A stretch of 23,585 nucleotides of DNA from a virus (lineage: Duplodnaviria; Heunggongvirae; Uroviricota; Caudoviricetes): IMG/VR virus record IMGVR_UViG_2565956613_000007; one strand, written 5' to 3'. Positions 7,714 through 23,476 of this stretch are shown here, piece by piece; positions within the stretch are counted from its first letter, which is position 1; every line of letters starts with the position of its first letter. The translations under genes and the position numbers were made by a program. A model generated the notes under the pieces. The model was not told where the DNA came from. It saw only the letters and a list, made by a program, of their open reading frames with translations, and searched no databases.

Positions 7714-8014
7714 AATCGCAGCGCCATTAGGCGGAGATGCCATTATCGAATTTGATGATAATGAAGAAGTTTCCGGGCGTTTAAGCATTATCTCCGGTGA
7801 CATTACCGAGGACATGATCGCTGAAGCCATAGCTGGGGCAAATCCCAATAGCTATATGGGATTCGTTAACACCCTTGATGCTCCCGCAAGTGATGTTCTC
7901 CGAACGCTGCATCTTTACGCTGGCTGGTTTGTTGATTGGCCAGCAGTAGATGGTGGCGATGAGGACGACGACGACGATGATTTTGGTGATCATGTAGACC
8001 AGATCGTATATTGA
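7703..8014 (+). CDS. Small acidic protein with a poly-Asp C-terminal tract (103 aa)
   Basis: ATG overlaps the end of ddrB with AAGGAG 8 nt upstream. The C-terminus DGGDEDDDDDDFGDHVDQIVY is strongly acidic. It is the last gene of the dar operon before a terminator. Confidence 0.55.
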   Translation: MQIKIAAPLGGDAIIEFDDNEEVSGRLSIISGDITEDMIAEAIAGANPNSYMGFVNTLDAPASDVLRTLHLYAGWFVDWPAVDGGDEDDDDDDFGDHVDQIVY

Positions 8015-8034
8015 AGAAATCCCGCCGATTGGCG
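8007..8034. terminator. Rho-independent terminator between convergent operons
   Basis: Seen in sequence: AAATCCCGCC-gatt-GGCGGGATTT stem-loop followed by a T run on the plus strand. It sits between the end of the dar operon (plus) and the end of the ssb operon (minus). Confidence 0.7.
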
Positions 8035-8042
8035 GGATTTTT

Positions 8043-8831
8043 TTAATCGCTTTCCACTTCTTCCGTGGTGTTTTCTTGCAGTTCTGTTAATGCAGCACGA
8101 CATAGGTTCCGGGCATTGGCTATAGCCACACTTTTGACTTCATCCGTCATCGTGCAGGTAATGTACTGATCGAGTTCTTCAGCGCGGATGATGCTTTTGC
8201 CAATCAGAAACTGTATTTGCCAGAGCAGATCGGCATCCATAATCAGAATTTCTGCCGGGCCTTCAGGGCCAGCCGGGAAGGAAACATAAGACTGTTTGCC
8301 CAGGCCGATAACTCGACAACTTGCTTCAAGAATTGCGCGCTTGAGGTCTGACTTTGTAACGGAAACAGGTTGGTTTTCACCAGTGATTATGCCGTTGACA
8401 TGGAAATGGAAGGGCATGTAGCTTGAAATACGCTCTACTTTCCACACGCCAGCAAGCGATCCTTCATGCAGCACAATGGGGGTAACCGCGAGTTTCATCT
8501 CACCATATAACTGCTGGCAGATAGCTGGATTGCTGAATACATCCAAAGGTTCACACTCAAACAGCGGCGCAATCTGCATGAGGTCCATCATGGTCATACC
8601 AGGGGTACGAGCAGTAATGAATCTGCGCATGCCAGTATCCATTGTGCGCCAGATAGCTACACCATGCTTTTTGCTCACTTCTTCAGTAAAGCCAAGGTGG
8701 CACATGATGGTTTTTTCGATAGCCAGATCAGAGATCGAAACCTTTTCGCCAGGCACACCATCATTATTGATGGTCACTTCGACACTCTGACCATTACGCA
8801 GGCGGTATTGAATTGCTTTAGTATTTTCCAC
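8043..8831 (-). CDS. Hypothetical protein (262 aa), last gene of the ssb operon
   Basis: GTG start 6 nt after the stop of the upstream gene, preceded by GGAG. No motif recognised. Confidence 0.55.
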   Translation of the reverse strand: MENTKAIQYRLRNGQSVEVTINNDGVPGEKVSISDLAIEKTIMCHLGFTEEVSKKHGVAIWRTMDTGMRRFITARTPGMTMMDLMQIAPLFECEPLDVFSNPAICQQLYGEMKLAVTPIVLHEGSLAGVWKVERISSYMPFHFHVNGIITGENQPVSVTKSDLKRAILEASCRVIGLGKQSYVSFPAGPEGPAEILIMDADLLWQIQFLIGKSIIRAEELDQYITCTMTDEVKSVAIANARNLCRAALTELQENTTEEVESD

Positions 8832-8837
8832 GTTAAA

Positions 8838-9515
8838 TCACTCCACTACAAACCAGTCACATGCCAGTAAGTCGCCTACAGAAGGAACCCACGGAACAAC
8901 TACACCTTGTGCATTTTTTAAGGCGAAATAAGCACCATACGGAACGAGGTCGCCGGGGAAATATCCCTTAATGGCTTCCATTCGTGCCGGGTACTGTCCT
9001 TCAGGAACCAGCCAGCAGAATTGGTTTTCGCCGTTCCACCCGCGTCGAGCAACTTTCTTGCCATCCTTCAGCCACATCAGCGCGTCAGAAAAGTCGGCTG
9101 CTTCAAGGTCGATTTCTTCTTGTAGAGTAGCGATACCGCCAGCAGAAATAGTTACGTCCCTGGCTGTAATGAATGTCACCCCATTGTGACCTTCAATGCT
9201 GAGCGATACCCCATTTTCGAAGAAGTCGTTAGTCCGACTAAAGCCTTCTTCAAATGTTTTTTCTGGTGAATAGGACAGAGATCCGTCCTCATAAGCGACC
9301 AGATATCCGCCAATTTCTGGTCGGTGTTTTTGCAAAAACATTTTATCAACATGGACTTTTACCCCTTCTGGCTCAACGACTTCGATGTTGCAAAGAAGGA
9401 CCACATCCATTAGGGCGATAATTTCGATATCTTTGATTTTTGAGGCGCGAACTGTTTTATGGCTTTTGTATTTTGGAAGTGCCGTCAAAAGCTCTTTCGT
9501 TGTCATGTTATTCAT
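8838..9515 (-). CDS. Two-domain protein (225 aa) with a C-terminal DUF2829/Tad2-like domain
   Basis: Preferred start ATG at 9515 with the strong SD GAGGAAAG; the track extends it to 9683 without good initiation signals. C-terminal segment FSDALMWLKDGKKVARRGWNGENQFCWLVPEG ... GDLLACDWFVVE fits the pattern I associate with DUF2829 (the family that includes the Thoeris anti-defence protein Tad2). This is a from-memory assignment. Confidence 0.55.
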   Translation of the reverse strand: MNNMTTKELLTALPKYKSHKTVRASKIKDIEIIALMDVVLLCNIEVVEPEGVKVHVDKMFLQKHRPEIGGYLVAYEDGSLSYSPEKTFEEGFSRTNDFFENGVSLSIEGHNGVTFITARDVTISAGGIATLQEEIDLEAADFSDALMWLKDGKKVARRGWNGENQFCWLVPEGQYPARMEAIKGYFPGDLVPYGAYFALKNAQGVVVPWVPSVGDLLACDWFVVE

Positions 9516-9529
9516 AGTCTTTCCTCTGC

Positions 9530-9712
9530 TTAAAACCTGATGTCTTGCGCCTTCAGGTGGGTCAGGAATGTTTTCCCACCAGCGAAAGCAATATCTCGGG
9601 GTGTTCTTTTCGTGAAAAGCGCGTGCCATTGCCAACTTTGGCGTTTGTTTGCGAGTTCGTGCTTTTGTCGGCGTCTGGACCACCGCTTTTCTTTCAGTCG
9701 TTTTTTACACAT
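9530..9712 (-). CDS. Possible small basic protein (60 aa)
   Basis: The ATG directly abuts the ssb stop (TGAATG) and the ORF ends 14 nt before the next gene start, so it fills the inter-gene gap exactly. Very Arg/Lys-rich. No SD of its own, so low confidence. Confidence 0.3.
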   Translation of the reverse strand: MCKKRLKEKRWSRRRQKHELANKRQSWQWHALFTKRTPRDIAFAGGKTFLTHLKAQDIRF

Positions 9713-10201
9713 TCAAAACGGAATATCGTCGTCAAAGTCCATTGGAGGTTCGTTATTGGCGTTGCTCTGAGGTTTACCGCCACCACTGTATTGCTGGTGG
9801 TTTTGAGGTTGGTTTGATTGCCCCCAGCCATTTGAGGACTGTGAATCGTCACGGCGAGCGCCGATCATTTGCATGGTGCCGCCCTGGCTGACGATAATTT
9901 CCGTCGTGTAACGTTCTACACCGGCGTCATCTGTCCACTTACGGGTTTTAAGTTTCCCTTCGATGTAGACCTGAGAACCTTTTCGTAAATATTCACTCGC
10001 AATTTCAGCAAGTTTTCCGAACAAAACTACTTTATGCCATTCTGTTTGCTCTTTCTGTTGGCCCGTTTGCTTGTCGCGCCATGATTCATTCGTTGCGATG
10101 CTGAGTCTTCCGACCGCGCCGCCATTTGGTATATACCTGATCTCCGGGTCTTGCCCCAGGGTACCAATCAGGATGACTTTGTTTACACCGCGTTGTGCCA
10201 C
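9713..10201 (-). CDS. ssb: Single-stranded DNA-binding protein (162 aa)
   Basis: Classic SSB OB-fold sequence ([18 protein letters not shown] ... [14 protein letters not shown]), a Gly/Gln-rich linker and the acidic C-terminal tail MDFDDDIPF. Confidence 0.92.
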
Positions 10202-10220
10202 TTATCTTACCTAATAAAAT

Positions 10221-10237
10221 AAATTAATTAGAGCAAT
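10221..10237 (-). promoter_or_regulatory. C1 repressor operator-like 17-mer (16 of 17 match to the consensus ATTGCTCTAATAAATTT as I recall it)
   Basis: Seen in sequence: the minus strand reads ATTGCTCTAATTAATTT, located 20 to 36 bp upstream of the ssb start in the ssb/lyz divergent region. Confidence 0.5.
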
Positions 10238-10260
10238 AATGTATATCTTTGAAACGTGGC

Positions 10261-10282
10261 TAACAAGTGATTTGCATTATCC
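10261..10282 (+). promoter_or_regulatory. Putative late-promoter element TAACAAGTGA plus downstream AT-rich hexamer
   Basis: Seen in sequence: TAACAAGTGA at 10261..10270 followed by tttgcaTTATCC, about 90 bp upstream of lyz. The same 10-mer recurs upstream of prt; the ACAAGTGA core recurs upstream of the gene at 22558..23199. Confidence 0.4.
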
Positions 10283-10370
10283 TGTGCCTTCTAAAGGGAT
10301 CGAGTCAGTCGGTATTGGCTGTGAATGAGTGTTTGTCCTGGAGCGTAAAAAATTCGCTTATGAGGTCTTT

Positions 10371-14016: not shown

Positions 14017-17000
14017 ATGAACAAGCTATCTATGGGGGTGTTTCGCTGTTCAAGTGTCAGCGAAATATTGAAATACATTAGGGCAATAACATCTCACCGA
14101 GCGCCGATTAGATACGGCGTGGAAAAGGTGGAAGGCAAAAGCTATGACCGACTACGCCGGGAGGCGAATCAGAAGGCGATTGATTTGCTTAATTCGCTGG
14201 TGGACGGCGCGACACTGACAGATGAACAGCGCCAGATCCTGGCTGGGTACACCGGTGAAGGCGGCATTGGCGGGTCCGTCTCCGAATATTACACACCAAA
14301 GCCGATCGCTGAAGGTGTCTGGGAGATCATGAAGCTCTACGGCGCGGACGTAGGTAACACTCTGGAACCATCGGCGGGCACCGGCGTTTTTAATGAGACA
14401 AAACCGGTTGGTACGGTGATGACTGCGACTGAGATCAGCAGTGTTTCCGGTCGTATAAACCAGCTGTTACACCCGGAAGACAGCGTACAGATTTCCCCGT
14501 TCGAACAGCTGGCTGTAAGCACGCCTAACGATTCATTCGACCATGTTGTGGGTAACGTTCCGTTCGGTGGTCGTGATAACACACGCAACATCGATAAGCC
14601 TTACGCAGAAGAAACGGACATGGGTTCTTACTTCATGCTCCGCATGCTGGACAAGATAAAGCCAGGCGGATTCATGTGCGTGATTGTGCCGCCGTCCATT
14701 GTTTCAGGTTCAAACATGAAGCGGTTACGCCTGCGCCTATCACGGAAAGCTGAATTTCTTGGTGCTCACCGCTTGCCTACCGGTACTTTTGACGCAAACG
14801 GGACCAGTACAGTCGTTGATGTGGTGCTGATGCGCAAACATCCGGCAGAGATGGCTGAGAAAATCCCCCTGGTGGATGAAAGCACTCTTGAATCGGCAAA
14901 TGTGCTTTGGCCAACGTTTATTTCTGGCAAGTGGTTTGAAAAGGACGGTCGCCGGTTTGTTCATGGCACCCAGGAGAAGGGATTCCAGGGGCGTATTGAG
15001 GTTCGTGCCGACGGGCAGATTGATAACCAGGCTCTTAAAGCGAAGCTGATTCATCGTTTCGAAAGTCGTATCGACTGGTCTTTACTCAATATGGCTGAAC
15101 CGTCACCGACCGCAGACGTTGTTGATGAAGGGGAAATGCGCCTGATTAATGGCGTATGGCAAAAATATGCTGGTGGTCGCTGGATTGAATCTGATGCAGG
15201 GAAGGAGCTGAAGATTGATGTTGCCAGTTATGGCGCGGACAGCTGGGAGGCTCTTCAGCGTAACCTGACTACAACAGAAGGCCGTCTCGGTATGACATTT
15301 ACCCAGATGGCAAATGTCCGCGATAAGTACACCACATCAATCAGCGACGATATGGTGCAGCTGGTGGACTGGATTAACAGCCAGCCTGAAAAATACCGTG
15401 AACGCTTGTATCGCGGGGCGATGATTGGCCGGATGTTAATTGAATATCAGGACATGAAGGCCGCCGGGCATAGTGCTGAACAAATCGAACAGCAGCGCCT
15501 TTCTCTGGTATCCCGTTTGCAGGCAGAGATTGACCGTTTTGGTAACCCCGGTCGCGGTCCGATAGCGAAATTATCGGGGAGCGGTGCGCGCGCCTGGTTT
15601 GCTTTCCGTGGTGCAATTAAGCTGGATGGCACTATTTCTGACGAGCTGACAGGAAAACTGGTTACGCATGATTCCAGCGCCAGTTATGACTCCACCAGCT
15701 ATCAGGACACCCTGCGTTATCTCTACAGTGATCTCACTCGCGATCCAATCCAGCTCGATGATTTCCGCCTTGCGTTTACCGGCGAACTGCCAGCCAGTGA
15801 TGACGAGTTGCTTAATTTATTGGCCAGCACCCCTGGCATTGCGGTTTCACCGTATGGCGGGATTGTTCCGTTCGCCCGCGCCACCAGCGGAGACATTAAC
15901 GAGATAGTGGCACCAAAACAGGAATTCCTTGCCACACTCCCCGACGGTCCAGTAAAGAACAACGTCCTTAATCAGCTGGCAGCGATCGAAGAGAAGCGCA
16001 TCAAGACGCCAGCAGAGAATATCCGCTTTAAGCTCAATAGCCGTTGGTTCGACCGTTCCGTCATTCTGGAATTTTTGCAGGAAAACGGCTATCCGGATCT
16101 TCGCTATGTGCAGTCAGTGCAGCTGGAAGGCGACGAAATGGTTTCTGACACCTATCACGGTGGTGATGGTCTGTTCGTCGGGCACCGATACGGTGTTGTC
16201 CAGCGCAAGGATAAAGAAACAGGCGAGATCCGCTACGAGTGGGACCGTAAATCAGGTGAAAACGCGACCGGGTTCCCGGCACAGCTGGAAAAGTATCTCA
16301 ATGGTGCGCGTATCGGTGGCAAAGATAGCGCGACGGCGAACGGCTACCGCGAGCAGATGGCACTGCTTGAGGACCAGTTCAATAAGTGGATCAAGACGCA
16401 CGATCGCTACGATGAACTGGTTGCCAAATACAACGATGTGTTCAATAGCAATATCCCGTATGAACACTCTGGCGATCCGCTTGGGTTGAAGGGATTAAGC
16501 GGTAAGCGCCAGCCATTTGATTACCAGAATAGCGAAGTGCGCCGACTGTCCGAAGATGGGCGCGGCATCCTGGGCTTCGGCACCGGGCTGGGTAAAACTA
16601 CGACCGCGCTGGCGCTTGAAGCGTTCAACTATGAGAACGGTCGCTCCACCCGTACTGCGTATGTAGTGCCTAAATCAGTGCTGGAAAACTGGTATTACGA
16701 AGCAAAAGAATTCCTGAGTGAAGAGGCATTCAGTAACTACCTGTTCGTCGGTCTTGATGTGCTGATGGATGGCGATCAGATTCGCCAGGTGCCGGTGCTC
16801 GATGAGAACGGTAAACCTGTTCTTGGTACTGATGGCACTCCAGTTATGCGCGATGCCCTAAAACTGGCAGATGAAGCCACTATCACGGCGCGGATGAACG
16901 CGATCCCGCACTCAAATTACCGTGCAGTCGTGTTTACCAAAGAACAATACGCCCGCATTCCGCTACGTGATGACACCGTAGATGAGCATGCACAGGATAT

Positions 17001-23459: not shown

Positions 23460-23476
23460 GTTGCTCTAATAAATTT
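23460..23476 (+). promoter_or_regulatory. C1 repressor operator-like 17-mer (16 of 17 match to ATTGCTCTAATAAATTT)
   Basis: Seen in sequence: gTTGCTCTAATAAATTT in the AT-rich region at the right end of the window, presumably controlling a gene beyond the window edge or the divergent region. Confidence 0.5.

Follow-up and report, generated by a model that had tools for sequence, protein, structure and literature searches.

What does a P1-like phage-plasmid gain from a gene that joins a Tad2 domain, of the kind that sequesters immune signals, to a second small domain for which Pfam has no model? The question is raised by IMG/VR virus record IMGVR_UViG_2565956613_000007, the whole 23,585 nucleotides (nt) of which are here called the window, and by its gene at 8838-9515 on the minus strand. 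I conclude that the 225-amino-acid (aa) product is probably a two-module counter-defence protein, in which an early-expressed Tad2 sponge for an ADP-ribose signal derived from TIR proteins is combined with an accessory or second counter-defence module, an OB-fold domain homologous to that of the capsid decoration protein Dec of phage L. The parts of the gene, hereafter the OB-Tad2 gene, are as follows.

8838-9515, minus strand: OB-Tad2 fusion gene, 225 aa (stop codon 8838-8840, ATG 9513-9515; from the open reading frame and the sequence)
8841-9104, minus strand: Tad2-like (PF11195/DUF2829) domain, residues 138-225 (from Pfam, PDB sequence matches, Foldseek and a structural model)
9105-9224, minus strand: linker, residues 98-137 (NGVSLSIEGHNGVTFITARDVTISAGGIATLQEEIDL), with a predicted local distance difference test score (pLDDT) below 50 and a strand-like pattern
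9225-9488, minus strand: Dec-like OB-fold, residues approximately 10-97, in the order beta1-beta2-beta3-alpha-beta4-beta5-alpha
9519-9526, minus strand: Shine-Dalgarno sequence GAGGAAAG preceding the ATG (read from the sequence)

The window is a P1-like phage-plasmid. Its positions 8000-10300 are 98.3% identical to Salmonella phage SJ46, and a copy of the OB-Tad2 gene in the Escherichia coli plasmid NZ_CP103660.1 is 100% identical. Translated from the ATG at 9515, the product has the termini MNNMTTKELL...DWFVVE, and it is 99% identical to a protein cluster (P0001) of 453 member sequences that goes by the name "DUF2829 domain-containing protein".

The preliminary description of this gene, made from the letters of the sequence, had proposed that the last 85 or so residues resemble DUF2829, the family that includes Tad2. 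A profile search confirms the resemblance: Pfam PF11195 (Tad2-like, formerly DUF2829) matches residues 141-224 with E=1.6e-22 and 80.3 bits (cut-off 25), over profile positions 2-73 of 73. A phmmer search against the sequences of the PDB finds ModTad2 (9eib, 6e-20), 8v3e, HgmTad2/AcrIIA7, SPO1 Tad2 and SptTad2. An AlphaFold2 monomer model, built on 42 homologues, has a pLDDT of about 90 over residues 140-225, and it superposes on the solved Tad2 structures, a comparison that the preliminary description had suggested. In a Foldseek search of the PDB every one of the 24 best matches is a Tad2 structure, and the template modelling (TM) scores, normalized to the target, are 0.62-0.85; those to ModTad2 range over 0.79-0.85, and the top match is ModTad2 bound to histidine-ADP-ribose (His-ADPR; 9eib), at 46% identity and a TM score of 0.79. 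The last 88 residues of the protein constitute a genuine domain of the Tad2 family. They add a new member to a known kind that has already been surveyed, Tad2 having been reported previously in phage-plasmids of the P1 and D6 groups.

In order to examine the ligand pocket, the published contacts (10.1101/2023.05.01.538930, 10.1101/2023.11.15.567273) were transferred to the window protein through a HMMER alignment. The core of the pocket is conserved. Residues W25, N26, W73, S76 and D79 of SPO1 Tad2 correspond to W160, N161, W209, S212 and D215 of the window protein, of which W160, W209 and D215 do not vary among 42 homologues, and the conserved residues of the pocket for ADP-ribose signals in HgmTad2 are W21, N22, S90 and D93. 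The variable insertion between beta2 and beta5, at approximately residues 171-193, equals that of ModTad2 in length. Judged from the sequence, the ribose-phosphate core of the pocket is intact, and the side that would recognise what varies among the ligands is unlike that of SPO1 Tad2 and also unlike that of ModTad2. An attempt to assign the ligand from the pocket residues was abandoned for this reason, since the variable positions differ from both proteins.

The characterised members of the family give an idea of what such a domain may do. SPO1 Tad2 is a sponge for 3' cyclic ADP-ribose (3'cADPR), ModTad2 binds His-ADPR and, in a second pocket, cyclic UMP and cyclic CMP (cUMP/cCMP), HgmTad2 and SptTad2 bind cyclic dinucleotides in the insertion pocket, and Tad2_71 binds N7-cADPR. 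The Acb4-Tad2 protein of Pasteurella phage Pm86 blocks both Thoeris and CBASS, and fused Tad2 domains stay active. Phage P1 is restricted by the Pycsar system of E. coli E831 and is rescued by ModTad2; the P1 restricted in this way lacks the OB-Tad2 gene.

By homology with these proteins, the Tad2 domain of the window protein would assemble into a homotetramer, whose inter-protomer pockets would sequester an ADP-ribose-derived signal produced by a TIR protein, and a Thoeris-type system deprived of its signal would fail to switch on its effector. My first candidate for the ligand is His-ADPR, with which type II Thoeris signals, since the closest solved relative is ModTad2; 3'cADPR and N7-cADPR are kept as further candidates, given that SPO1 Tad2 and ModTad2 both have other residues at half of the positions that line the pocket. 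In a second pocket, shaped by the beta2-beta5 insertion, the domain may hold a cyclic mono- or dinucleotide, of the sort used as signals by Pycsar or CBASS. If P1 biology is a guide, the protein would be silent in the lysogen and made at once on infection or induction. The Dec-like OB domain would then be a separable, recombining module that adds a second counter-defence activity or a helper activity, with a small molecule, the capsid or a protein as its partner.

Several considerations weigh against this reading. Five of the ten pocket-lining positions are changed between SPO1 Tad2 and the window protein (I63 to L199, T65 to N201, D67 to Q203, H71 to V207 and T78 to G214), and four of these five also differ from ModTad2, which has L, T, D, A and S at the positions of L199, N201, Q203, V207 and G214. 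No close relative was found among the experimentally tested proteins in the supplementary files of two Tad2 papers, and the sponge activity of the window protein is predicted from homology. The 137-residue appendage at the N-terminus could alter the predicted assembly of the Tad2 domain. Finally, early expression in the present element is presumed from the annotation of P1.

What, then, is the appendage? The preliminary description had called it an unrecognised domain of 140 residues, which holds insofar as the N-terminal 140 or so residues have no match in Pfam, in NCBIfam or among the named PHROGs, only in PHROGs of unknown function, but the region can be recognised as an OB-fold like that of Dec, with a variable linker behind it. 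In the full-length model residues 10-97 form a beta-rich domain that is predicted with confidence, and confidence is low over residues 98-137. Modelled alone, the OB domain has a pLDDT of 87.8 and a predicted TM score (pTM) of 0.78. The Foldseek matches include the phage L decoration protein Dec (6e3c, E=1.2e-3), and a profile constructed from 21 N-terminal domains matches Dec with E=6.7e-6 over positions 13-91. The pairwise score of the OB domain with Dec lies above those of all 2000 shuffles, and the two have in common the motifs P-x-YK, V-x-A-x-x-IK and PE-x-GGYL ... G-x-L-x-Y ... AFE-x-x-Y. The N-terminal domain and the OB-fold of Dec are homologues.

No significant similarity to Dec carries over to the linker, which in an alignment takes the form of two allelic variants and is missing in some homologues. 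A correspondence of the linker to the trimeric spike of Dec was considered and finds no support, as the score of residues 95-140 against Dec 89-134 is reached by 45% of shuffles (10% for the other allele). PHROGs of tail fibres are matched by the tail of Dec, and none by the window protein. I also considered whether the OB domain might be one of the proteins Lockin, Sequestin, TadIV-1 or Acb5. All four were rejected on the basis of their published descriptions (TadIV-1, for instance, is helical and restricted to T4-like phages) and of the OB motif's occurrence in fusion proteins whose other part is Sequestin or, in one instance, resembles Lockin; the domain must be distinct from Lockin because it is found fused to such a protein. 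Nor does the window protein match Acb4 (PF13876), Sequestin (PF21825) or Acb2/Tad1 (PF24729) in Pfam, even at E<=1.

The OB domain turns out to belong to a large family that has no Pfam model. A word-indexed search with the N-terminal 100 aa alone returned only close fragments, and an exhaustive profile search was required. Searching representative clusters at 50% identity with a hidden Markov model (HMM) gave 5,017 clusters at E<=1e-3 and 2,597 at E<=1e-10. Architectures were determined for the best 150 of the 5,017, as follows.

Standalone, up to 130 aa: 50
OB with other sequence, 131-200 aa: 41
OB-Tad2: 15
OB with other sequence, more than 200 aa: 13
OB-Sequestin: 11
Tandem OB-OB: 9
Giant repeat proteins: 7
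OB-Tad2-Sequestin: 4

Two close relatives of the window protein (P0135 and P0105) are examples of the last combination. The giant proteins (1,800-4,600 aa; P0129-P0134, P0176 and P0208) contain 11-28 repeats that match only the center of the OB profile, approximately positions 41-86. Outside the Pfam scan of the top representatives, which missed it, a further partner that handles nucleotides was encountered: the OB domain lies within proteins annotated as MazG-like pyrophosphatases (phrog_37613, and BFVD A0A384WK77, a 394-aa protein of Vibrio phage vB_VpaS_KF6).

The partners of the OB domain suggest a possibility that I put forward tentatively, one that extends the two-module explanation and is compatible with it: that the OB domain is itself a signal sponge or some other direct counter-defence module, making the window protein a dual inhibitor. 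When the 84 members of 131-1000 aa from the best 150 were scanned, the sole Pfam families found were four sponge families: PF21825 (Sequestin) in 16, PF11195 (Tad2) in 12, PF13876, the Acb4 family (10.1101/2025.07.12.664507), in 3, and the PF24729 Acb2/Tad1 hairpin in 2. Fusions to Tad2, to Sequestin or to both make up 30 of the best 150 representatives, and a fusion to Tad2 or Sequestin is likewise seen in 8 of an independent sample of 46 non-redundant viral genes from IMG/VR. OB-Sequestin proteins and one fusion of the OB domain to a Lockin-like-looking protein are present, uncommented, in the supplementary tables of 10.1101/2025.07.12.664507. Fusion to known sponges was the very criterion by which that study discovered Sequestin, and the OB domain would have been invisible to its fusion screen because the screen was restricted to Pfam families. 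The term OB-fold does not occur in the sponge papers searched, and the Acb4 paper contains no description of fusion partners. The family also resembles sponges in the frequency of standalone proteins of about 85 aa (50 of 150) and the occurrence of tandem OB-OB proteins (9 of 150), which suggests a multimeric unit.

Conservation within the family points in the same direction. Across 146 OB domains the conserved residues are, in the numbering of the window protein, H19, K20, K26, K63, H64, Y75, D77, Y79, S81, S83, P84, E89 and Y92, a set with basic and aromatic members that includes Y75-Y79 within the loop between beta4 and beta5 (the L45 loop). Dec has kept the hydrophobic core and lost nearly all of these residues. 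Against a dual inhibitor stand three observations. The OB domain is the most divergent segment among the alleles of P1- and D6-type elements (48-58% identity, beside a Tad2 domain that is 93-100% identical), and the polar residues conserved in the family are often substituted in those alleles, which is unlike a pocket for an invariant metabolite and more like a protein interface or a site under relaxed constraint. Many of the standalone members adjoin terminase and portal genes. And in 51 of the 84 multi-domain members the partner has no Pfam match, so that the restriction to sponges applies to recognisable partners only.

I put forward just as tentatively the possibility that the OB domain lacks its own target and is a passive aid to the sponge, through solubility, stability, higher-order assembly or spacing. 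The domain is dispensable, in that there are natural variants with Tad2 alone (112 aa) or with Tad2 joined to dUTPase, and the linker too is absent from some homologues. Its promiscuous attachment to several unrelated sponge folds is what would be expected of a generic helper, and the relaxation of functional-site residues in the P1/D6 alleles also fits. It would be unexpected, however, for a passive tag to exist as a standalone gene in thousands of phages, or for some 20 positions to be at least 90% conserved, including H, K, D, S and Y residues of the type found on surfaces.

An improbable alternative is that the OB domain binds the capsid lattice as Dec does, thereby tethering the sponge, masking a capsid feature that is sensed by host defences, or acting as a virion decoration protein. 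Dec, the sole characterised homologue, does bind capsids via its OB domain, and the rapid divergence of the OB domain among P1/D6 alleles fits an interface between proteins. In addition, around 38 standalone OB genes there are many hits to PHROGs of the terminase large subunit (13), portal (8) and head-tail adaptor (6), a position similar to that of dec in phage L; these counts are of family hits, and a single protein may match several families. I do not take this neighborhood as proof of a structural role, however, since a genuine OB-Tad2 gene occupies the same kind of site, between lysis and terminase genes (L024). The OB gene of phage Dewey lies likewise in a moron region between lysis and terminase genes, and that of phage Dolphis (gp96), an OB homologue labelled "capsid decoration protein", is found amid small genes of early type. 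The gene in the window itself is in an early operon under C1 control and not in a late operon, P1 makes normal virions without the OB-Tad2 gene, Dec does not have the polar residues conserved in the family, and the trimerising tail of Dec is undetected in the window protein. With regard to other neighborhoods, the OB-Tad2 gene of SopranoGao lies in an early regulatory region, and a separate Tad2 or Sequestin gene adjoining a standalone OB gene was seen in a single case (L030).

Least credible is the view that the Tad2-like domain has no role against defence and is instead a binder of a housekeeping nucleotide such as cyclic di-GMP (c-di-GMP) that alters host physiology, an anti-CRISPR protein (as once proposed for AcrIIA7, a DUF2829 protein) or a relic: HgmTad2 does bind c-di-GMP with picomolar affinity, and the altered half of the pocket lining could be read in this way, but the anti-Cas9 activity of HgmTad2 was not reproducible, the core pocket residues are invariant in the 42 homologues, about 99% of Tad2 proteins are predicted to have a working site for glyco-cyclic ADP-ribose (gcADPR), and the gene is intact in hundreds of plasmids, its Tad2 portion often 100% identical across mosaic alleles, which indicates purifying selection.

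Taking the OB family as a whole, one may speculate that with the OB domain a first example has come to light of a huge and hitherto unrecognised family of phage counter-defence modules, either new sponges or domains that mask or tether to the capsid feature to which signalling defence systems respond, deployed alone or joined to sponges of the Tad2, Sequestin, Acb4, Acb2/Tad1 and Lockin types. Dec would be a derived offshoot of the family that lost the conserved site. The OB-Tad2 fusion, and the restriction of the recognisable partners of the OB domain to sponges, are undescribed in the literature searched.

The 225-aa product described above begins at the ATG at 9515, for which there is an alternative in the databases. 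A frame of 281 aa, beginning with a GTG at 9683, is annotated in SJ46, and its counterpart in P1 is the N-terminus of the 320-aa IsaA. This longer frame was rejected, as it contains two stop codons in a relative from Escherichia albertii. The ATG and the GAGG of its Shine-Dalgarno sequence (located 8-11 nt 5' of the ATG) are kept in that relative, and P1 isaA is preceded by the same leader, ribosome-binding site and ATG as is the OB-Tad2 gene. I take the 225-aa product to be the real one because the longer frame carries stops in E. albertii while the shorter start is conserved. The annotated starts of P1 IsaA (L001, NC_005856, 3001-3963) and of the SJ46 protein (L002, 3334-4179), both at the upstream GTG in the leader proximal to ssb, are probably about 56 codons too long.

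The surroundings of the gene bear on when it would be expressed, and consist of the following features.

10204-10266, minus strand: promoters P1ssb and P2ssb, overlapping or abutting the operator (from P1 annotation and sequence comparison)
10221-10237, minus strand: C1 repressor operator ATTGCTCTAATTAATTT (17 bp, 10237-10221), identical to P1 Ossb/Op21
9713-10201, minus strand: ssb, the first gene of the operon (Pfam SSB, E=7e-40; P1 annotation)
9516-9712, minus strand: 197-nt spacer from ssb to the OB-Tad2 gene, containing a 60-codon open reading frame
8043-8831, minus strand: isaA homologue, 262 aa, starting 6 nt after the OB-Tad2 stop (phrog_2326, of unknown function, E=5.6e-151)

The placement of the gene in the ssb operon, behind a site resembling a C1 operator, had been noted in the preliminary description and is borne out: ssb lies directly upstream on the same strand, and the operator is identical to Op21 of P1. 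The P1ssb promoter is also identical to that of P1, and P2ssb has one base changed. No terminator-like site was found on the minus strand from ssb to the OB-Tad2 gene. By its sequence context the gene is the second cistron of an ssb operon with the operator and promoters of the C1-repressed ssb operon of P1. According to the annotation of the P1 record, C1 keeps that operon shut in the lysogen, and derepression leads to its immediate expression. Elsewhere in the window, at 23460-23476 on the plus strand, there is a further site resembling a C1 operator, GTTGCTCTAATAAATTT, with one mismatch to the consensus ATTGCTCTAATAAATTT.

The spacer between the two genes was searched against Rfam for a structured RNA, and there was no match at E<=1. 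The open reading frame within it (9530-9712, minus strand) begins straight after the ssb stop codon (TGAATG) and would encode a very basic peptide, MCKKRLKEKRWSRRRQKHELANKRQ..., with a stop codon 14 nt 5' of the OB-Tad2 ATG. The frame is open in four of four relatives, P1, SJ46 and the E. albertii plasmid among them. It has no NCBIfam match and is unannotated in all of the records compared, and in an alignment with E. albertii approximately 2 synonymous and 7 non-synonymous differences can be read. Its coding status is uncertain.

The OB-Tad2 gene is a discrete, dispensable accessory cassette. P1, when aligned with the window, lacks 8828-9511 (684 nt, with 6 nt in place of them), and its leader, ribosome-binding site and ATG run straight into isaA. 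In P7 it is the porin gene nmpC that stands downstream of ssb instead of the OB-Tad2 gene. The D6-like plasmids carry the OB-Tad2 gene at another locus, directly after dut and near cre, and there it is followed by an isaA-like gene. An IncY plasmid from E. albertii has the same gene arrangement as the window, and the isaA partner in an IncY P1-like plasmid is 96% identical. Among the plasmids of PLSDB, 229 carry the OB-Tad2 gene, of which 225 are non-mobilizable replicons of approximately 90-100 kb from Escherichia, Salmonella and Shigella. A survey with DefenseFinder found Tad2 in 56% of the elements of the P1 group and 93% of those of the D6 group (10.1101/2025.09.12.675607).

An isaA-like gene (besides that of the window, L008 1018-1794, L010 857-1654, L011 1418-2194 and L003 4733-5500) is always located 3' of the OB-Tad2 gene, at the ssb locus in P1-like elements and at the dut locus in D6-like elements, and P1 keeps isaA only. 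The isaA homologue of the window has no match in Pfam, NCBIfam or the PDB. The partners in D6-like elements are 256-266 aa in length and 47-49% identical to it. The recurrence of the pair suggests that the OB-Tad2 and isaA-like genes form a conserved two-gene module at two loci and are functionally linked.

Comparison of alleles (window 8841-9515 with P0003-P0055) shows them to be mosaics, at least three parts of which have been exchanged separately: the OB domain, the linker, which comes in two types, and the beta2-beta5 insertion, of which there are at least four. Outside that insertion, the Tad2 domain is 87-100% identical among these alleles. A variant with Tad2 only, of 112 aa, is found at L011 2201-2539. 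A fusion of dUTPase to Tad2 (P0056, 241 aa, present in several contigs) was considered as a case of designed modularity, an interpretation that was rejected, as the fusion is explained by a 452-nt in-frame deletion between dut and the OB-Tad2 gene at a 10-nt microhomology. The deletion, evident in D6-like plasmids from L003 4001-4726 as compared to L008 1801-2987, removes the OB domain. In RCS47 (FO818745.1, about 14710-15950) the match to window 9060-9515 stops inside the gene, where an annotated "conserved protein of unknown function, part 1" adjoins an inverted repeat, and the gene appears to have been interrupted by an insertion. P1 has IS1 just past isaA. The region downstream of ssb seems to be a hot spot of insertion and deletion.

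Signal sponges are a main means by which phages counter Thoeris, CBASS and Pycsar, and it is fusion to sponges already known that has lately brought new sponge families to light. The OB domain, whose recognisable Pfam partners are all sponges, is a testable lead for a new counter-defence module, with a direct experimental route. Proteins that contain it could add a major family to those that counter defence, or they could reveal why sponges are coupled to a fold like that of a capsid binder. There is also a practical consequence. Defence assays based on P1 may understate the ability of wild P1-like phage-plasmids to evade signalling immunity, because laboratory P1 is without the OB-Tad2 gene, which more than half of the natural P1-like elements carry, including those of Shiga toxin-producing E. 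coli (STEC) and Salmonella.

Among known systems, the closest solved relative of residues 138-225 is ModTad2 (MoTad2), from a prophage of Myroides odoratus (8V3E, apo; 9EIB, with His-ADPR). The two share the W-N ... W-x-x-S-x-x-D motif of the core pocket. ModTad2 is a standalone protein of 89 aa, whereas the window domain has an N-terminal extension of 137 residues, and the pocket linings differ by four changes, T to N201, D to Q203, A to V207 and S to G214. SPO1 Tad2 (gp34.65; 8SME/8SMF/8SMG), the founding member, has in common with the window domain the Pfam family, the fold and the contacts W25/N26/W73/S76/D79, but the two are only about 35% identical and are distinguished by I63L, T65N, D67Q, H71V and T78G. 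The insertion of SPO1 Tad2 is short and occluded, and that protein binds only gcADPR; the window insertion has the length of ModTad2's.

In its overall plan the window protein resembles the fusions of two sponges, such as Acb4-Tad2 of Pm86, Tad2-Sequestin and Sequestin-Acb4, all of which join two small phage modules in one polypeptide. It departs from them in that Tad2 is joined to a Dec-like OB-fold, which has no Pfam model and belongs to no known sponge family. With Dec of phage L (6E3C) it has in common an OB-fold, at 28% identity over 81 aligned residues and with the same published order of beta1-beta2-beta3-alpha-beta4-beta5, and in both cases the segment that follows is rich in strands and is disordered in monomeric form. 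Dec, however, is a late protein, a capsid-binding trimer with a spike of tail-fibre repeats, and its gene lies upstream of that of the small terminase subunit, in contrast to the early OB-Tad2 gene in its C1-repressed ssb operon. The nearest genomic counterpart is the ssb-isaA-IS1-isaB region of P1, which is the same operon, its isaA corresponding to the gene downstream in the window, and which either lost or never had the 684 nt of OB-Tad2.

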